In this document: positions 7,876-25,145 of the stretch, one piece after another
How the letters are laid out: the number at the start of each line of letters is the position of its first letter
Position numbering within the stretch: position 1 is the first letter of the stretch
Program-made: the position numbers and the translations under genes
Notes under the pieces: model-generated
Databases searched by the model: none
The model's input: only the letters and a program-made list of their open reading frames with translations
What the model was told of the DNA's origin: nothing
NCBI RefSeq assembly: GCF_055900595.2
Contig: NZ_CM148325.1
Length of the DNA: 64,000 nucleotides
Strand: one strand, 5' to 3'

Positions 7876-8250
7876 GATGCCCTCCAATATGGTTATTTTT
7901 TATTGTGAATTAAGATAGGTGAGTACGACGTAAAAAGATGTGAAGCAAATCACATCAGTGTAATCGCTTACACTAACATTTATCTTAGTTATGATTTAAG
8001 TGCATGAAAATAATTGAGTTATATCATCATAGATTAAAGGTTGTTATCTGCAATTAAGACTTTACTGAAAAGAAATGTAACAACTGTGAAAGCTGAATAA
8101 TAATATGAAAATATTACAAATATTTGGCTGGTGTGGTTGGTGTAATCGATTTCAGTAGTGATGATAATTTGCGGTAAAACGTGTTGAGGAAGAATGATGT
8201 TATTGTGCGGGCGGTTTTTTGCCGGATGCGGCGTGAACGCCTGTCCACTG
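7876..8250 (-). promoter_or_regulatory. AT-rich galP upstream control region
   Basis: Long AT-rich spacer upstream of galP; the known galP promoter region of E. coli lies here. Individual operator sites not mapped. Confidence 0.4.
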
Positions 8251-18222: not shown

Positions 18223-19131
18223 TTACTTAGTAGAGATAAACGGAACTGTACTGCCGGGGATCATGGTATCGGGTAGCTTACCGTCCCAACGCTCAGCAGT
18301 GGTGAGGGCAACAAGTCCGGGATTATCCCGCAGAGCTTCACCGCGCAGGCGGATCGCTTCTGCTTCAGCCGCACTTTTTAAACGAATAGTTTCAGCCTCT
18401 GCCGCGCCTCTTACGCGAATAGTCTCAGCTTCTGCTTTGGCTGCCGCCAGTTTACTGTCTGCTTCTGCCTGGGCCTGAGTTACCGCTATTTGCGCCTGGA
18501 TTTTCTCTGTTTCCAGATTTTGCTTACGTGTGGCAATGGCGACTTCTGCTTTCATTCGATCTTCAATCGATTTTTCATAAGCGTCAGAAAAATCAATATT
18601 TTCAATCTGGACACCATCAATCACCACCGGGCCAACAACGGCTTTACGCATTGCATTTTGCAGATCCTGAACCAGTTTTGTACGATCCTGTACCGCGCTG
18701 ATGGCGGTATATTGGCCGAAAACGTTCTCCAGTTGAGTTGGCAACTGACGGACAATCAGACGATCTTTTAATGCTTCAATGGTGTTGTAGGTGGTATAAA
18801 CCGCGCCTGCTTCTGAAGGTTTAATGTGGAAGCTGACTGATACTGTCATTTGTGCCGGTTGCTGGTCGCGGCTGTAGGCCTGTAATCCCTGATAAACCAC
18901 AGCCTGATTACGCGTGGAAATTTTCTCTACGCTTTCCATAAAAGGGATCTTAAAACCCAGACCCGGCTCGGCAACTTTTACGATTTTTCCGTAGCGCAGC
19001 AAAATGCCGCGTTCACCTTCATTAACGGTGTAATACGAGAGAAATGGCAGCACAACCACGGTAATCACGCCAATGGCGATAGCAATAGATTTTTGTGGGC
19101 GAAATGAGGTTATTGAAACAGGTGCTTTCAT
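18223..19131 (-). CDS. SPFH/band-7 (prohibitin/HflC-like) membrane protein, 302 aa; not part of the K-12 tktA-cmtB arrangement
   Basis: aaggaag RBS 7 nt upstream of the ATG; N-terminal TM segment (IAIAIGVITVVVLPFLSYY), SPFH-like core (NEGERGILLRYGKI...), C-terminal Ala/Glu-rich 11-residue repeats. Confidence 0.8.
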   Translation of the reverse strand: MKAPVSITSFRPQKSIAIAIGVITVVVLPFLSYYTVNEGERGILLRYGKIVKVAEPGLGFKIPFMESVEKISTRNQAVVYQGLQAYSRDQQPAQMTVSVSFHIKPSEAGAVYTTYNTIEALKDRLIVRQLPTQLENVFGQYTAISAVQDRTKLVQDLQNAMRKAVVGPVVIDGVQIENIDFSDAYEKSIEDRMKAEVAIATRKQNLETEKIQAQIAVTQAQAEADSKLAAAKAEAETIRVRGAAEAETIRLKSAAEAEAIRLRGEALRDNPGLVALTTAERWDGKLPDTMIPGSTVPFISTK

Positions 19132-19506
19132 GAGAATCTTCCTTGAGTAAAGCGTGGGAATATGTCACATGAGGTGAGGAGAAAACAGCCAACAGGTGAG
19201 AATTCAGAATCTATAAAGGGGGAGAGCGAAAAACATCGGCTAAAAAAGTATGTTTTCGAACATTCAATAGATAAATAGAGATATGCATCACAAATACATA
19301 GGCAGATAAAACATTGGTTTTGTGATAAACATAGCAAACACAAACTTGACTTTATAAGTATAAATTTCATGTTGTTGTTATTTAACATTTTATTATTTTG
19401 GTTCATGTTTTTTTTCTTCTCGCGTGCCCAATTGCTTTCATTAAATCGCACGAGTATTTTATTTTTACCGCCGGACGGTACCCTAAAAATAAAATAAGGA
19501 TAATTT

Positions 19507-19950
19507 ATGCGGCTTATTGATTATTTTCCAGAATCATCAATCTCAGTTATACATTCAGCAAAAGATTGGCAGGAAGCTATCAATTTCTCGATGGCATCAT
19601 TGCTGGATAAAAACTATATCAGCGAGAATTACATTCAGGCTATTAAAGATTCCACCATTAACAATGGCCCTTATTATATTCTCGCACCAGGCGTGGCAAT
19701 GCCTCATGCGCGACCGGAATGTGGGGCGCTTAAAACCGGGATGTCTTTGACGTTACTTAAACCAGGCGTTTATTTTCCGGGGAATGACGAACCGATTAAA
19801 TTACTTATCGGTCTTTCTGCTGCCGATGCCGATTCGCACATTGGTGCTATTCAGGCGTTAAGTGAATTGCTGTGCGAAGAAGAAATACTTGAACAACTCT
19901 TAACTGCAACATCAGAAAAACAATTAGCGGACATTATCAGCCGCGAATAA
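19507..19950 (+). CDS. cmtB: PTS mannitol-family EIIA component, cryptic (147 aa)
   Basis: MRLIDYFPESSISVIHSAKDWQEAINFSMASLLDKNYISENYIQAIKDSTINNGPYYILAPGVAMPHARPE... matches CmtB. Confidence 0.9.
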   Translation: MRLIDYFPESSISVIHSAKDWQEAINFSMASLLDKNYISENYIQAIKDSTINNGPYYILAPGVAMPHARPECGALKTGMSLTLLKPGVYFPGNDEPIKLLIGLSAADADSHIGAIQALSELLCEEEILEQLLTATSEKQLADIISRE

Positions 19951-19977
19951 TGACTCTCTCCTCTACAGGATAATATT

Positions 19978-21366
19978 ATGGAAAACAAGTCTGCTCGTGC
20001 AAAGGTCCAGGCTTTTGGGGGCTTTTTGACGGCAATGGTCATCCCCAATATTGGTGCTTTTATTGCCTGGGGTTTTATTACTGCATTATTTATTCCTACT
20101 GGTTGGCTGCCTAACGAACATTTCGCCAAAATTGTCGGCCCGATGATTACCTATTTATTGCCCGTAATGATTGGTTCTACCGGTGGCCATTTAGTCGGCG
20201 GTAAACGCGGCGCAGTCATGGGCGGAATAGGGACAATTGGTGTAATCGTCGGCGCAGAAATCCCGATGTTCCTTGGTTCAATGATCATGGGACCGTTAGG
20301 TGGGCTGGTCATAAAATATGTCGATAAGGCACTGGAAAAACGCATACCTGCTGGTTTTGAGATGGTTATCAATAACTTCTCATTAGGTATCACCGGGATG
20401 CTCCTTTGTCTGCTGGGTTTTGAAGTAATCGGCCCGGCGGTGTTAATTGCCAATACTTTCGTCAAAGAGTGTATTGAGGCGCTGGTACATGCGGGCTATC
20501 TGCCTTTGCTGTCAGTCATCAATGAACCGGCGAAAGTGCTTTTCCTCAATAACGCGATAGATCAGGGCGTCTATTACCCGTTGGGGATGCAACAGGCTTC
20601 AGTTAACGGTAAATCCATCTTCTTTATGGTGGCGTCCAACCCTGGGCCTGGCTTAGGACTGCTGTTGGCGTTTACTTTGTTTGGTAAAGGGATGAGTAAA
20701 CGTTCTGCGCCCGGGGCGATGATTATTCACTTCCTCGGTGGGATCCACGAACTGTATTTCCCGTATGTGCTGATGAAGCCGCTGACCATTATTGCCATGA
20801 TTGCCGGCGGTATGTCTGGCACCTGGATGTTTAACTTACTGGACGGTGGTCTGGTGGCTGGTCCAAGTCCGGGGTCTATCTTTGCTTACCTTGCACTGAC
20901 GCCGAAAGGCTCGTTCCTGGCGACAATTGCCGGTGTTACGGTAGGTACCCTGGTGTCCTTTGCTATCACTTCCGTAATACTGAAGATGGAAAAAACGGTG
21001 GAAACGGAGAGCGAAGATGAGTTTGTGCAGTCCGCCAATGCGGTTAAGGCGATGAAACAAGAAGGTACATTCTCGTTAAGCCGGGTTAAGCGTATCGCCT
21101 TTGTTTGCGATGCGGGAATGGGCTCCAGCGCGATGGGCGCAACCACCTTCCGTAAGCGCCTGGAAAAAGCGGGGCTGGCAATAGAAGTAAAACATTACGC
21201 GATAGAAAACGTGCCTGCAGATGTGGATATCGTCGTTACTCACGCTAGTCTGGAAGGGCGCGTGAAACGTGTGACGGATAAACCGCTGATATTGATTAAT
21301 AACTATATTGGCGATCCCAAACTCGACACTTTATTTAATCAATTAACCGCTGAACATAAAAACTGA
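19978..21366 (+). CDS. cmtA: PTS mannitol-family EIICB component, cryptic (462 aa)
   Basis: Full-length match to CmtA; multi-TM EIIC followed by EIIB. Confidence 0.9.
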   Translation: MENKSARAKVQAFGGFLTAMVIPNIGAFIAWGFITALFIPTGWLPNEHFAKIVGPMITYLLPVMIGSTGGHLVGGKRGAVMGGIGTIGVIVGAEIPMFLGSMIMGPLGGLVIKYVDKALEKRIPAGFEMVINNFSLGITGMLLCLLGFEVIGPAVLIANTFVKECIEALVHAGYLPLLSVINEPAKVLFLNNAIDQGVYYPLGMQQASVNGKSIFFMVASNPGPGLGLLLAFTLFGKGMSKRSAPGAMIIHFLGGIHELYFPYVLMKPLTIIAMIAGGMSGTWMFNLLDGGLVAGPSPGSIFAYLALTPKGSFLATIAGVTVGTLVSFAITSVILKMEKTVETESEDEFVQSANAVKAMKQEGTFSLSRVKRIAFVCDAGMGSSAMGATTFRKRLEKAGLAIEVKHYAIENVPADVDIVVTHASLEGRVKRVTDKPLILINNYIGDPKLDTLFNQLTAEHKN

Positions 21367-21380
21367 TTGCCGAGGTAAAA

Positions 21381-22658
21381 ATGAAAACCAAAGTTGCTGC
21401 TATTTATGGCAAGCGGGATGTCCGTCTGCGCGAATTTGAACTGCCCGAAATTACCGATAATGAACTGCTGGTGAGTGTAATTTCTGACAGTGTGTGTTTA
21501 TCGACCTGGAAAGCGGCGTTACTCGGTAGCGAACATAAACGGGTGCCCGACGATTTAGAAAATCATCCGGTCATTACCGGGCATGAATGTGCCGGGATTA
21601 TTGTTGAAGTGGGGAAAAATCTTACCGACAAATATAAAAAAGGCCAACGTTTTGTATTGCAACCGGCGATGGGGCTACCAAGCGGGTATTCTGCGGGATA
21701 CAGCTACGAATATTTTGGCGGTAATGCTACCTATATGATTATTCCGGAGATCGCCATTAACCTGGGCTGCGTATTACCGTATCACGGATCTTATTTTGCT
21801 GCGGCGTCTCTGGCAGAGCCGATGTGCTGCATTATTGGCGCTTATCATGCCAATTATCACACCACGCAATATGTTTATGAGCATCGCATGGGCGTGAAAC
21901 CTGGTGGCAATATTGCGCTGCTGGCGTGTGCTGGCCCGATGGGGATAGGCGCTATCGATTACGCTATTAACGGCGGCATACAACCGTCGCGGGTAGTGGT
22001 GGTCGATATCGACGACAAACGCCTGGCACAGGTGCAGAAGCTGCTGCCGGTGGAGCTGGCGGCCAGCAAAGGCATTGAGCTGATATATGTGAATACCAAA
22101 GGAATGGCCGATCCGGTACAGAAGCTGCGGGCGCTGACAGGAGATGCTGGGTTCGATGACATTTTTGTTTATGCGGCGGTGCCTGCTGTCGTTGAGATGG
22201 CTGACGAATTACTGGCGGAAGATGGCTGCCTGAACTTCTTTGCCGGGCCGACGGATAAAAACTTCAAAGTGCCGTTTAATTTCTACAACGTCCATTACAA
22301 CAGCACGCACGTCGTCGGTACATCGGGTGGTTCAACGGACGATATGAAAGAGGCGATTGCCCTGAGCGCCACGGGGCAGTTGCAACCGTCGTTTATGGTG
22401 ACGCATATCGGTGGCCTGGATGCAGTGCCAGAAACCGTTCTCAATTTACCGGATATCCCCGGTGGTAAAAAACTCATTTACAACGGCGTTACCATGCCGC
22501 TCACCGCCATTGCCGATTTTGCCGAAAAAGGTAAAACAGATCCGCTGTTTAAAGAGCTTGCGCGGCTGGTTGAGGAAACGCACGGCATCTGGAATGAACA
22601 GGCCGAGAAATATCTGCTGGCGCAATTTGGCGTTGATATCGGGGAGGCCGCGCAATGA
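21381..22658 (+). CDS. yggP: Zn-dependent medium-chain dehydrogenase-like protein YggP (425 aa)
   Basis: Full-length match to K-12 YggP as recalled; immediately downstream of cmtA. Confidence 0.85.
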   Translation: MKTKVAAIYGKRDVRLREFELPEITDNELLVSVISDSVCLSTWKAALLGSEHKRVPDDLENHPVITGHECAGIIVEVGKNLTDKYKKGQRFVLQPAMGLPSGYSAGYSYEYFGGNATYMIIPEIAINLGCVLPYHGSYFAAASLAEPMCCIIGAYHANYHTTQYVYEHRMGVKPGGNIALLACAGPMGIGAIDYAINGGIQPSRVVVVDIDDKRLAQVQKLLPVELAASKGIELIYVNTKGMADPVQKLRALTGDAGFDDIFVYAAVPAVVEMADELLAEDGCLNFFAGPTDKNFKVPFNFYNVHYNSTHVVGTSGGSTDDMKEAIALSATGQLQPSFMVTHIGGLDAVPETVLNLPDIPGGKKLIYNGVTMPLTAIADFAEKGKTDPLFKELARLVEETHGIWNEQAEKYLLAQFGVDIGEAAQ

Positions 22659-23620
22659 TGTCCCTGGCGTGGCCATTATTTCGCGTTACGGAGCAGGCAG
22701 CGTTGGCTGCCTGGCCGCAAACCGGATGTGGCAACAAAAATAAAATTGATGGCCTGGCGGTCACCGCGATGCGCCAGGCATTAAACGATGTCGCTTTTCG
22801 TGGGCGAGTGGTCATCGGCGAGGGAGAAATTGACCATGCGCCGATGCTGTGGATTGGCGAAGAGGTGGGCAAAGGCGATGGGCCAGAAGTCGATATCGCG
22901 GTTGACCCGATTGAAGGCACGCGGATGGTGGCGATGGGGCAGAGCAATGCGCTGGCGGTAATGGCTTTCGCCCCACGAGGCAGCCTGTTACACGCGCCCG
23001 ATATGTATATGAAAAAGCTGGTCGTTAATCGGCTGGCGGCGGGCGCGATTGATCTGGCGTTACCCCTGGCGGACAACTTGCGCAATGTGGCGAAAGCGTT
23101 AGGCAAACCGCTGGACCAGCTACGTATGGTTACGCTGGATAAACCGCGCCTGAGAGCCGCAATTGAGGAAGCGACACAACTGGGCGTGAAGGTTTTTGCC
23201 CTGCCAGATGGCGATGTCGCCGCCAGCGTGCTGACCTGCTGGCAGGATAATCCTTACGACGTGATGTACACCATCGGCGGCGCGCCGGAAGGAGTTATTT
23301 CTGCCTGTGCTGTTAAAGCATTGGGTGGGGATATGCAGGCCGAGCTGATTGATTTTTGTCAGGCCAAAGGGGATTACACGGAAAATCGGCAGATTGCAGA
23401 ACAGGAACGCCAGCGTTGCAAGGCAATGGGCGTTGACGTTAACCGTGTGTACTCGCTCGATGAACTGGTGAGGGGGAACGATATCCTCTTTAGCGCTACG
23501 GGCGTGACGGGCGGCGAGTTGGTGAATGGTATCCAACAGACGGCGAATGGGGTGCGGACGCAGACATTACTGATCGGCGGCGCGGACCAAACGTGTAATA
23601 TAATAAACTCCCTGCATTGA
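22655..23620 (+). CDS. yggF: class II fructose-1,6-bisphosphatase, GlpX paralogue (321 aa)
   Basis: Full-length match to YggF; start overlaps yggP stop by 4 nt. Confidence 0.85.
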   Translation: MMSLAWPLFRVTEQAALAAWPQTGCGNKNKIDGLAVTAMRQALNDVAFRGRVVIGEGEIDHAPMLWIGEEVGKGDGPEVDIAVDPIEGTRMVAMGQSNALAVMAFAPRGSLLHAPDMYMKKLVVNRLAAGAIDLALPLADNLRNVAKALGKPLDQLRMVTLDKPRLRAAIEEATQLGVKVFALPDGDVAASVLTCWQDNPYDVMYTIGGAPEGVISACAVKALGGDMQAELIDFCQAKGDYTENRQIAEQERQRCKAMGVDVNRVYSLDELVRGNDILFSATGVTGGELVNGIQQTANGVRTQTLLIGGADQTCNIINSLH

Positions 23621-23641
23621 TGGTGATCTATCGGAAGACGA

Positions 23642-24151
23642 ATGGCGACGCTGACAGAAGATGATGTGCTTGAGCAACTGGACGCACAGGACAATTTATT
23701 GTCATTTATGAAAACTGCATATGCCATTTTGCTCCAGGGGATACGCCAGTTTCTGCCGTCGCTGTTTGTCGATAATGATGAAGAGATCGTGGAATATGCA
23801 GTGAAGCCGTTACTCGCTCAAAGCGGCCCGCTTGACGATATTGATGTTGCGCTACGTTTGATTTTTGCGCTGGGGAAAATGGACAAATGGCTGTATGCCG
23901 ATATCACGCACTTTTCCCAGTTCTGGCATTACCTGAATGAACAGGATGAAACGCCCGGATTTGCCGATGACATTACCTGGGATTTTATCAGCAACGTCAA
24001 TAGCATAACCCGCAATGCGACGCTCTATGACGCGTTAAAAGCGATGAAGTTCGCTGATTTCGCCGTCTGGTCAGAGGTGCGTTTTAGTGGGATGGTCAAA
24101 ACGGCGCTGACGCTGGCAGTAACGACCACCTTAAAGGAATTAACGCCGTGA
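23642..24151 (+). CDS. yggD: MtlR-family putative regulator YggD (169 aa)
   Basis: MATLTEDDVLEQLDAQDNLLSFMKTAYAILLQGIRQ... matches YggD. Confidence 0.85.
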   Translation: MATLTEDDVLEQLDAQDNLLSFMKTAYAILLQGIRQFLPSLFVDNDEEIVEYAVKPLLAQSGPLDDIDVALRLIFALGKMDKWLYADITHFSQFWHYLNEQDETPGFADDITWDFISNVNSITRNATLYDALKAMKFADFAVWSEVRFSGMVKTALTLAVTTTLKELTP

Positions 24152-24861
24152 AAATCGAACTGACGGTGAATGGATTGAAGGTACAGGCGCAGTACCCGAA
24201 CGAAGAGATTGAAAATGTGCATAAACCGTTGCTGCGTATGCTGGCAGCCTTACAGACGGTAAATCCGCAGCGGCGTACCGTGGTTTTTCTTTGCGCTCCG
24301 CCGGGGACGGGTAAATCTACCCTAACCACTTTCTGGGAATATCTCGCGCAACAAGACCCGGAACTACCCGCTATTCAGACGCTGCCGATGGATGGTTTTC
24401 ACCATTACAATAGCTGGCTGGACGCGCATCAATTGCGCCCCTTCAAAGGCGCACCAGAGACATTTGACGTTGCGAAACTGGCGGAAAATCTGCGCCAGGT
24501 CGTGGAAGGGGATTGTACGTGGCCGCAGTACGATCGACAAAAGCATGATCCTGTTGAAGATGTGTTGCACGTTACCGCACCACTCGTCATCGTCGAAGGA
24601 AACTGGTTGTTGCTGGATGACGAGAAGTGGCGGGCGTTGGCATCGTTCTGCGATTTTTCTGTTTTTATTCATGCCCCCGTTCAAATTCTGCGGGAACGCT
24701 TGATTAGTCGTAAAATTGCGGGGGGATTATCGCGGGATGAAGCCGAAGCTTTTTATGCCCGAACCGATGGTCCCAATGTCGAGCGTGTGCTGCTGAATAG
24801 TTGTCAGGCCAATCTGATATTAGAGATGACGGAAGAAGGCAGGTATAACTTCATAAGCTGA
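24148..24861 (+). CDS. yggC: P-loop kinase-like protein YggC (237 aa)
   Basis: Walker A CAPPGTGKST visible; 4-nt overlap with yggD. Confidence 0.85.
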   Translation: MKIELTVNGLKVQAQYPNEEIENVHKPLLRMLAALQTVNPQRRTVVFLCAPPGTGKSTLTTFWEYLAQQDPELPAIQTLPMDGFHHYNSWLDAHQLRPFKGAPETFDVAKLAENLRQVVEGDCTWPQYDRQKHDPVEDVLHVTAPLVIVEGNWLLLDDEKWRALASFCDFSVFIHAPVQILRERLISRKIAGGLSRDEAEAFYARTDGPNVERVLLNSCQANLILEMTEEGRYNFIS

Positions 24862-25145
24862 CAATTTATTCCAGTTATTGTGCGGTTATTATTACGCCAG
24901 TCTGGAATAAAGCCTCCTGCAAGAAGGGAAGAAAGTGTGATACAAGTCAGATAATTGTCTTCTTTGACTGGACAATCATTCCTTTTATTCCACGTTTCGC
25001 TTATCCTAGCTGAAGCGTTTCAGTCGATTAAATGTTCGACAATTAACCAATCAGTCGCAGTTTGCGACAGGTAAGGTTTCCCCGGACGATTTGCTGGATT
25101 ACTCTGTCTGGCAAATTTGCTCAGGGAAAACCTTGCAGGAGATCT

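Follow-up and report, generated by a model that had tools for sequence, protein, structure and literature searches.

A possible route from a mannitol-like polyol to a ketose bisphosphate in the cryptic cmtBA-yggPFDC cluster of Escherichia coli

A 64,000-nucleotide stretch of contig NZ_CM148325.1 (NCBI RefSeq assembly GCF_055900595.2), analysed here at its full length and referred to as the window, carries cmtBA-yggPFDC, the long-known and well-annotated ‘cryptic mannitol’ orphan operon of Escherichia coli, a cluster that has been called ‘cryptic’ since 1993. We see that the mannitol-type EIIA and EIICB of its phosphotransferase system (PTS), together with YggP and YggC, form a core conserved across Enterobacterales, Vibrionaceae and Clostridia, and that yggF and yggD stand outside it, as accessories tied to particular lineages. 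On the reading we favour, to which we give a probability of roughly 45% and for which we infer every enzymatic step, the cluster would convert a mannitol-like polyol, by way of polyol-1-phosphate and ketose-1-phosphate, to a ketose-1,6-bisphosphate, probably fructose-1,6-bisphosphate (FBP), and would thereby supply glycolysis along a path not described before.

Six intact + strand open reading frames (ORFs), cmtB, cmtA, yggP, yggF, yggD and yggC, occupy positions 19507–24861 of the window (Table 1). Both the ORF list and RefSeq bear out this order and common orientation, as proposed in an initial annotation made from the letters of the stretch, and the protein classes it had assigned agree with Pfam/NCBIfam matches well beyond chance. 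Its description of the locus as a complete ‘uptake-plus-catabolism module’ is supported, with one reservation: the core co-occurs across three distant lineages with its gene order shuffled, but ‘complete’ is an overstatement because the cluster encodes neither an aldolase nor an isomerase. Its remark that the substrate is not established still stands, as the literature searched to mid-2026, including a 198-compound promoter screen, contained no paper establishing one; matches to ‘b2933’ (a strain name) and to ‘YggF’ (a typographical error for YgfF) were discarded.

A four-gene core in distant lineages

We gathered 170 loci through a scan of species-representative genomes, a metagenome scan and exact-protein look-ups, with their neighbours mapped by tblastn; the counts that follow come from the 80 non-redundant loci with enough flanking DNA (52 from Enterobacterales, 14 Vibrionaceae-like, and 14 Firmicutes-like or other). 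Homologues of YggP at ~65% identity are found in Vibrionaceae and Clostridia, and since all lineages are ~65% identical to the query, a metagenome scan aimed at Firmicutes gave mostly Enterobacteriaceae.

EIIA, EIICB, YggC and YggD are encoded at every one of the 52 Enterobacterales loci and GlpX/YggF at 44 of them. The Vibrionaceae-like loci uniformly encode EIIA, EIICB, YggD and YggC, with a PHP-domain (YcdX-like) phosphoesterase directly 3' of yggC (14/14 in each case), and GlpX at none (0/14). Among the Firmicutes-like/other loci the PTS, YggC and a PRD-type regulator are each present at 12 of 14 and YggD is absent from all, the usual order being cmtB-yggC-cmtA-yggP.

Around this core the partners change. 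A class II FBP aldolase is encoded at L170 and at the L148 type of locus (four redundant contigs), and a pyrophosphate-dependent phosphofructokinase (PPi-PFK) in two lineages (NF010675, 483 and 504 bits; GGNDS...PKTIDND signature). Locus L091, outside Enterobacterales, has an independently arising GlpX as well as a HisJ-like PHP protein, and shares with L075 split transketolase genes within the operon (both loci being Firmicute-like); at loci of the L156 type, YggC-YggP and a metallophosphoesterase stand under a DeoR regulator without an adjacent Mtl-type PTS. The transketolase gene tktA is adjacent at 40/52 Enterobacterales and 4/14 Vibrionaceae-like loci. No dedicated isomerase or epimerase is encoded at any compared locus, so the end product of the pathway should be a central metabolite.

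Two further contexts were met in the course of this comparison. At L172 and L173, homologues of YggP (~61% identical to the Firmicute query) occur without a PTS, adjoined by a DeoR regulator, a fused E1, E2 and E3, and a class II aldolase/SDR (short-chain dehydrogenase/reductase); transketolase matches found here were set aside as belonging to a pyruvate-dehydrogenase-type E1/E2/E3 set in a non-PTS setting, in what looks like a different use of the same dehydrogenase family. In Rahnella (L046–L050), L142 and L161 a cmt cluster lacking yggF adjoins mtlA-mtlD-mtlR, with only a ScsC/DsbA-like gene between, and in Rahnella laticis (L043) fbaA and tktA lie directly 3' of yggC.

Within E. coli the cluster is close to universal. 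It is the orthologue of b2934-b2928 of K-12 MG1655, with identical gene lengths and overlaps in the RefSeq annotation; these six genes are likewise annotated by RefSeq in the E. coli genome that matches best, and the 6.5-kb region is matched in 5425 of 5426 complete E. coli genomes, mostly at 90–95% identity and in a few at 98.8%. We conclude that the window derives from an Escherichia strain whose allele of this region has diverged. Differences from K-12 are largely silent (synonymous to non-synonymous codon differences of 59:6 in cmtA, 67:6 in yggP and 38:8 in yggF), which argues that these ‘cryptic’ genes are kept by selection and show no decay. The six genes are 93.3–96.0% identical to K-12 in nucleotide sequence, compared with 97.9–98.7% for epd, pgk and fbaA downstream, whose proteins are 100% identical to those of K-12; this lower identity suggests divergent alleles or recombination at the locus. 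Among Escherichia species cmtB and yggC are the most variable of the genes (83–96% amino-acid identity). One E. coli record encodes a 671-amino acid (aa) protein (P0018) with EIIC and ADH domains, probably a cmtA-yggP fusion or a frameshift, and the cluster also occurs on a few records filed as plasmids (E. coli records of 187 kb and 33 kb).

Enzymes and a proposed route to a bisphosphate

Working from the membrane inwards, CmtB matches PF00359 (PTS_EIIA_2) at 102.6 bits and NF007358 at 319 bits (cut-off 192), is 95.3% identical in amino acids to its K-12 counterpart and carries the active-site histidine motif VAMPHARPE. CmtA, formed from EIIC and EIIB domains (PF02378 and PF02302), has the EIIC motif GGIHE and the EIIB cysteine motif FVCDAGMGSS, so that the phosphorelay residues of the pair are complete; it passes the mannitol-specific models narrowly (TIGR00851, mtlA, at 480.8 versus 468.4 bits; NF011663 at 593.3 versus 589 bits). 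Together the two proteins would take up a polyol and phosphorylate its terminal hydroxyl, yielding polyol-1-phosphate. There are several resemblances to mtlADR: CmtA belongs to the same EIIC/EIIB subfamily as MtlA (~52% identical to the Rahnella MtlA encoded beside a cmt cluster), the two systems share the type of EIIA, and both have an operon-encoded MtlR-family protein and depend on the cAMP receptor protein (CRP) for control. The cmt system differs, however, in that its EIIA is a separate protein (MtlA being an EIICBA), its dehydrogenase is a SorE-type, zinc-dependent medium-chain dehydrogenase/reductase (MDR) rather than MtlD, the mannitol-1-phosphate 5-dehydrogenase, and it includes a kinase and a bisphosphatase that are superfluous in the mtl pathway.

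YggP contains PF08240 (ADH_N) and PF00107 (ADH_zinc_N) and has no equivalog match in NCBIfam, the best being IolM at 85 bits, far under its cut-off of 450. It aligns with SorE of a genuine Klebsiella sor operon at 46% identity (E 3e-132; residues 1–415 of 425), a full-length match that takes in the C-terminal extension, and with Lactiplantibacillus SorE at ~43%; none of the other MDR enzymes found exceeds 29% identity. The sor context of the compared SorE was verified from its mannose-family sorbose PTS and SDR-type glucitol-6-phosphate dehydrogenase. Both YggP and SorE lack the cysteine cluster of the structural zinc lobe, and in alignments of 12 and 13 sequences the YggP family is invariant at C39, H68, E69, E146, C150, G185-x2-G188-x-G190 and D209, so that the predicted catalytic zinc ligands, Rossmann motif and NAD-type aspartate are conserved. 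SorE, the reductase of sor operons in Klebsiella, E. coli and Lactobacillaceae, reduces L-sorbose-1-phosphate to D-glucitol-6-phosphate, acting at the carbon beside the terminal phosphate (PMC12817954). On this homology YggP is expected to catalyse conversion between a polyol phosphate and a ketose-1-phosphate. In the pathway we propose it would use NAD+ to oxidise the carbon beside the phosphorylated one, the simplest case being the formation of fructose-1-phosphate from mannitol-1-phosphate or glucitol-1-phosphate.

YggP is not SorE itself. At 78 of the 80 loci it is accompanied by an Mtl-type PTS and/or YggC rather than sorFBAM/sorD, a context so different from that of the sor operons that we take it as a paralogous subfamily: where SorE pairs with the mannose-family sorbose PTS and the SDR glucitol-6-phosphate dehydrogenase, YggP pairs with the Mtl-type PTS and YggC; its orthologues stand apart as a group, sharing at least 60% identity even between phyla; and its physiological direction is probably oxidative, that of SorE reductive. 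The literature searched contains no assay of YggP.

Model and matches alike identify YggC as a predicted small-molecule P-loop kinase of the PanK/Udk/PRK fold, known members of which phosphorylate a primary hydroxyl. The protein passes NF006742 (PRK09270, ‘nucleoside/nucleotide kinase family’) at 500.7 bits against a cut-off of 402; it has the Walker A sequence APPGTGKS, and DGFH, EGNW and R-x3-RK-x2-GG are invariant. The structure closest to its AlphaFold2 (AF2) model (pLDDT 95.7) is PDB entry 3C8U (TM 0.87, 31% identity), a ‘putative fructose transport system kinase’, with PanK, UCK2 and PRK coming next; in sequence, too, 3C8U is the best match (E 6e-22). A pointer to its substrate comes from what takes its place: at two independent loci, L169 and L171, each with an Mtl-type EII and a YggP orthologue, a PfkB-family protein is encoded in place of YggC, and both proteins exceed the curated equivalog cut-off for 1-phosphofructokinase (327 and 337 bits versus 292) and score far too low for the fructokinase model (50.8 and 32.4 bits versus a cut-off of 450). 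Such non-orthologous displacement points to a ketose-1-phosphate as the substrate of YggC and to the 1,6-bisphosphate as its product; that is, YggC would use ATP to phosphorylate the other terminal hydroxyl, giving in the simplest case FBP, and would do the job of FruK by means of an unrelated fold.

The likeness of YggC to 3C8U also allows the enzymes to be placed in a different order, with YggC acting as an FrcK-like ‘fructokinase’ on an unphosphorylated sugar or polyol and the phosphatase preceding the kinase. Polyol-1-phosphate would then pass through ketose-1-phosphate to the free ketose, released by YggF, PHP or another phosphatase, which YggC would convert to ketose-6-phosphate; alternatively, YggC would act on a substrate that enters without the PTS. 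YggC and FrcK are both P-loop kinases of the PRK09270 family tied to sugar transport genes, and the annotation of the nearest solved structure as a putative fructose transport system kinase/fructokinase fits such a role, as do the L156-type loci, in which YggC, YggP and a phosphoesterase are encoded under DeoR without an adjacent Mtl-type PTS, and the prediction of a ‘sugar/polyol kinase’ made for YggC by Gerdes et al., with experiments described as ‘in progress’ in 2011 (PMC3223725). The 3C8U annotation derives, however, from operon context and not from an assay, FrcK-type genes accompany ABC transporters where YggC accompanies a PTS, and YggC has an extra N-terminal beta-hairpin of ~35 residues. 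We know of no biochemical characterisation of either FrcK/3C8U or YggC. Given that the replacement proteins at L169 and L171 score as 1-phosphofructokinases rather than fructokinases, and that YggF passes the glpX equivalog and is a cited fructose-1,6-bisphosphatase (FBPase) for which activity on a monophosphate (ketose-1-phosphate) is unreported in the literature searched, we regard this order of steps as unlikely.

Returning to the bisphosphate route, FbaA, the housekeeping aldolase of class II, could cleave the ketose-1,6-bisphosphate, or YggF could remove the 1-phosphate from it to leave the 6-phosphate ester, fructose-6-phosphate (F6P), for biosynthesis. YggF matches PF03320 at 406 bits and the glpX equivalog TIGR00330 at 581.7 bits (cut-off 259.3) over residues 1–321, and is 97.5% identical in amino acids to K-12 YggF. 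The FBPase activity of the K-12 protein is attributed to Brown et al. 2009 in three later papers (PMC8719807; PMC10733421; PMC3105977), and deletion of yggF weakens growth in glycerol fermentation (PMC8719807). Whenever FBP is the point of entry for carbon, as with fructose via FruK or glycerol with glpX, the cell needs an FBPase, and YggF would thus supply F6P.

This logic invites comparison with two known operons. As in glpFKX, a GlpX equivalog is encoded within an operon whose substrate would enter glycolysis at or below FBP, but YggF is a separate paralogue, present only in a part of the Enterobacterales (the 44 loci above) and at the single distant locus L091, and elsewhere replaced by PHP proteins, metallophosphoesterases or PPi-PFK. 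With fruBKA the proposed downstream half, from ketose-1-phosphate to 1,6-bisphosphate, is identical, a FruK-scoring protein can fill the kinase slot (L169, L171) and an FBPase is likewise needed when carbon enters at FBP; the differences are that YggC is a P-loop protein of the PanK/Udk/PRK fold where FruK belongs to the PfkB family, and that the ketose-1-phosphate of the cmt route would come from oxidation of a polyol phosphate, that of fru directly from the PTS. The ATP cost of the proposed route would equal that of the MtlD route followed by PfkA. In its favour, too, the recurrent neighbours class II FBP aldolase, PPi-PFK and GlpX are all predicted to act on FBP-type bisphosphates.

Several observations weigh against this proposal. 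Mannitol phenotypes of K-12 depend on mtlA and not on cmtA, as in the case of mannitol-induced antibiotic tolerance (PMC11656735), and the literature searched to mid-2026 reports no activity for CmtAB, YggP or YggC, nor any assay of uptake by CmtAB. When a PcmtA-gfp reporter was exposed to 198 Biolog carbon sources no polyol acted as inducer, nucleosides being strongest (PMC12412646); the true substrate may lie outside standard panels. The 1-phosphofructokinase assignment at L169 and L171 is a hidden Markov model classification, and YggD, for which we propose a regulatory role, is cited as ‘verified as fumarase E’ and gave no ChIP-exo peaks under the condition tested (PMC8464067), the fumarase activity having been reported from a metabolomics screen in vitro. 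FBP as the product needs no dedicated phosphatase, yet unrelated phosphoesterases recur beside the core (GlpX, PHP, HisJ-type PHP and metallophosphoesterase), which hints at a non-glycolytic bisphosphate or a detoxifying role, and the intra-operon transketolase genes of the two Firmicute-like loci are left unexplained.

These last two points bear on an alternative in which the same enzyme logic serves an asymmetric seven-carbon polyol such as volemitol (D-glycero-D-manno-heptitol, the C1 end of which is mannitol-like), in an undescribed ‘phosphate-relocation’ route. Here YggP would oxidise heptitol-1-phosphate to sedoheptulose-1-phosphate, YggC would form sedoheptulose-1,7-bisphosphate, and YggF, as a sedoheptulose bisphosphatase (SBPase), would release sedoheptulose-7-phosphate for transketolase; or else FbaA would cleave the bisphosphate to dihydroxyacetone phosphate (DHAP) and erythrose-4-phosphate. 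In other lineages the PHP phosphoesterase, the metallophosphoesterase or a reversible PPi-PFK would carry out the phosphatase step. Four unrelated kinds of phosphoesterase beside the module suggest that dephosphorylation of a bisphosphate is integral to it; activity on the sedoheptulose-1,7-bisphosphate/sedoheptulose-7-phosphate pair is known for class II FBPases and PPi-PFKs, and a PPi-PFK is a partner in two lineages; and transketolase is encoded within the operon at L075 and L091 and adjacent to it, as tktA, in many gammaproteobacteria. Stereochemistry would also allow volemitol-1-phosphate to reach a central metabolite only through oxidation at C2, which would explain the need for a SorE-type enzyme, a kinase and a phosphatase. 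The tkt-epd-pgk-fba neighbourhood may, however, be ancestral gammaproteobacterial synteny; a transketolase is encoded at just 3 of the 14 Firmicutes-like loci, and the one at L172 is a pyruvate-dehydrogenase-type E1; the kinase that displaces YggC is classed as a 1-phosphofructokinase; our literature search gave nothing on bacterial PTS uptake of heptitols; and heptitols are rare in gut habitats. We therefore hold a heptitol substrate to be highly unlikely; were it true, E. coli YggF would gain a physiological role as an SBPase, and the recurrent phosphatase and transketolase partners would be explained.

A pentitol, in which D-arabitol would lead through xylulose-1-phosphate and xylulose-1,5-bisphosphate to xylulose-5-phosphate (Xu5P), was also considered on account of the transketolase links. 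We rank it low, because bisphosphates of six or seven carbons are a better fit to the aldolase, 1-phosphofructokinase and PPi-PFK partners and because a dehydrogenase acting at the far end would make the kinase unnecessary.

Regulation and surroundings of the cluster

RefSeq now gives yggD the name fumE, ‘fumarase E’, but its description as MtlR-like in the initial annotation remains right at the level of both sequence and structure. YggD matches PF05068 (MtlR) at 176.4 bits and NF007455 at 328 bits, corresponds to PDB entry 3C8G (E 6e-107) and finds the MtlR structures 6KCR (E 6e-12) and 3BRJ (E 5e-9); its Pfam/NCBIfam matches are of the MtlR type only, with no fumarase/lyase-family domain among them. 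YggD is encoded at all 66 gammaproteobacterial loci and at none of the 14 Firmicutes-like/other loci, the 12 PRD regulators falling among these 14. A mutual exclusion as clean as this is the pattern expected of a regulator and speaks against ‘fumarase E’ as the physiological role. In our scheme YggD would serve the unit as a regulator of the MtlR type rather than as a dedicated fumarase, and CRP would be its activator.

Two CRP-like sites lie 5' of cmtB (Table 1). Scanning the window with the CRP pattern gave 32 matches where 26.8 were expected, which is not significant, and for the first site the mismatch count alone is at the level of chance; in an alignment of 17 Enterobacteriaceae upstream regions, however, the first is kept as (T/G)GTGAT-N5-TCACA and the second, across genera, as TTTG(T/C)(G/A)A-N6-ATCACA with a conserved TTGAC/TTGC element after it. 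The cmtB promoter of K-12 is activated by cAMP-CRP (PMC3105977; PMC12412646), and it is this published work together with the cross-genus footprint, not the pattern itself, that makes the sites credible. Closer to cmtB, the best-conserved intergenic stretch across genera in the same alignment, ATTG(C/A)TTTCA ... GAGTATTTTATTTTTA, would provide a core promoter/operator, a role we infer from its conservation; it failed a stricter promoter consensus scan. Elsewhere in the window, positions 7939–7954 hold a CRP palindrome with 0 mismatches (TGTGAAGCAAATCACA), the sole perfect match of the 64 kb, and positions 24936–24951, between yggC and epd, a CRP-like site with one mismatch (TGTGATACAAGTCAGA) that presumably belongs to the epd-pgk-fbaA promoter region. 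Control of the CytR type, suggested by the tandem CRP-like sites and by TTGCAA-like variants of the footprint, was rejected since these variants merely replace CRP half-sites.

The tandem layout brings to mind a nucleoside-derived or ribitol-like substrate, nucleoside-regulated promoters having tandem CRP sites like the two here; the models for the Udk and PRK families, moreover, give weak matches to YggC. Uridine, inosine, guanosine, cytidine, adenosine and thymidine do raise PcmtA-gfp five- to ten-fold over glucose, but this response, the only one seen in the 198-compound screen, requires CRP and is shared by 14 of the 18 transporter promoters tested with uridine (PMC12412646). It looks global for this reason, and with an EIIC that passes the mannitol-subfamily model, a SorE-like YggP and a kinase slot that a 1-phosphofructokinase can fill, we reject a nucleoside as the main explanation and consider it most improbable.

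The genes are most likely expressed as a single CRP-activated transcription unit, judging from their spacing and conservation. As claimed previously, yggP/yggF and yggD/yggC overlap by 4 nt, each overlap being confirmed in the sequence: ATGA at 22655 (GGGGAGGCCGCGCAATGATG), with a Shine-Dalgarno-like GGGGAGG just 5', and GTGA at 24148 (AAGGAATTAACGCCGTGAAA), with a Shine-Dalgarno-like AAGGAA just 5'. The remaining gaps are 27 nt (cmtB/cmtA), 14 nt (cmtA/yggP) and 21 nt (yggF/yggD). A consensus scan found 6 promoters (10.0 expected by shuffling) and, within the cluster, 9 + strand terminators (8.2 expected, and so not above chance); with neither count clearly exceeding expectation the scan does not define the boundaries of the unit. 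Gaps of at most 27 nt, the two overlaps, a conserved order and terminators at the level of chance all favour one transcript; internal sigma-54 and CRP sites may point the other way. A CRP site detected by SELEX is located at yggF (PMC3105977), and K-12 has an intragenic sigma-54 holoenzyme site, IS35 (CTGGCGGCAATATTGCA), that ChIP-seq places 744 bp upstream of yggF (PMC4591121). The window carries a similar motif within yggP at the same relative position, its GG and GC kept.

Such internal sites raise the question of whether there is a single pathway at all, the alternative being a silent duplicate mannitol transporter, cmtBA, that happens to adjoin genes with no link to it, for a spare gluconeogenic FBPase (yggF), a minor fumarase (yggD/fumE), a kinase and a dehydrogenase. 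RefSeq and EcoCyc-style names treat the genes separately and the operon is called cryptic in K-12; YggF is credited with functions of its own, both as a cited FBPase and in glycerol fermentation, where its deletion hampers growth (PMC8719807), and YggD is reported as a fumarase that gave no sign of DNA binding (PMC8464067). Set against this, the four-gene core is held together across phyla despite a shuffled order, the translational coupling at yggP/yggF and yggD/yggC is conserved, the genes are under purifying selection, and YggD has an MtlR domain only and the phyletic distribution of a regulator. An assembly of unconnected genes is, in our view, distinctly unlikely.

Table 1. Genes of the cmt-ygg cluster and candidate control elements, with their positions in the window
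Feature	Position	Strand	Description
CRP-like site 1, 5' of cmtB, AGAGATATGCATCACA	19277..19292		2 mismatches to TGTGA-N6-TCACA
CRP-like site 2, 5' of cmtB, TGTGATAAACATAGCA	19321..19336		44 bp from site 1
Candidate core promoter/operator	19432..19460	+	weak -35 TTGCTT, 17-nt spacer, -10-like TATTTT; ~45 nt 5' of cmtB
cmtB	19507..19950	+	mannitol-family PTS EIIA, 147 aa
cmtA	19978..21366	+	mannitol-family PTS EIICB, 462 aa
yggP	21381..22658	+	predicted Zn-dependent MDR dehydrogenase, SorE (ketose-1-phosphate reductase) subfamily, 425 aa
Sigma-54 -24/-12-like motif inside yggP, CTGGTGGCAATATTGCG	21901..21917	+	2 mismatches to K-12 IS35
yggF	22655..23620	+	class II (GlpX-type) fructose-1,6-bisphosphatase paralogue, 321 aa
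yggD (RefSeq: fumE)	23642..24151	+	MtlR-family protein, probable regulator, 169 aa
yggC	24148..24861	+	predicted P-loop small-molecule kinase, PanK/Udk/PRK fold, 237 aa, GTG start

On its 5' side the cluster is preceded by tktA (+ strand) and then by an opposite-strand SPFH/Band-7 ‘prohibitin family’ gene (18223–19131, 302 aa), which with an AT-rich spacer (19132–19506) fills the interval between tktA and cmtB; in K-12 this interval is 313 bp of intergenic DNA only, without such a gene. The prohibitin-family gene is found at some Escherichia loci (L001, L003–L005, L007 and several metagenome contigs), adjoined in L001 by an IS621 pseudogene, and is absent from L002, Citrobacter, Salmonella and Klebsiella. 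On the 3' side lie epd, pgk and fbaA, the last as the third gene downstream. Many Enterobacteriaceae, though neither the window nor K-12, have between yggC and epd an insert of ~3.4 kb on the opposite strand, encoding two ABC ATPases, a CbiQ-like T component, an ECF S component and a PCC-domain protein; it was seen in L004 (13453–16529), L007–L009, L011, L012, L014, L016, L020, L024 and L029, and eight E. coli matches with an ‘ECF transporter’ carry it. Being an opposite-strand ECF transporter operon with a PCC-domain gene, this segment was rejected as a part of the cluster.

Significance of the cluster

The cmtBA-yggPFDC cluster is among the last PTS operons of E. coli without a substrate, even though practically all genomes of the species carry it in intact form. 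What is new here is the four-gene core shared across phyla, a testable hypothesis for the pathway, and an argument that the name ‘fumE’ misleads; the comparative result narrows the search for the substrate to a few cheap assays. CmtA is also of practical interest, in that its deletion raises the minimum inhibitory concentration (MIC) of tobramycin and its overexpression increases aminoglycoside uptake (PMC12412646).

Since Clostridia of the gut and Vibrionaceae of the sea have the same core, its substrate is presumably a carbohydrate that does occur in the environment. An answer would give functions to three orphan enzyme families, YggP as a polyol-phosphate dehydrogenase acting beside the phosphate, YggC as a new fold for a ketose-1-phosphate kinase, and YggF, and would probably correct the ‘fumarase E’ name that is now spreading through RefSeq.

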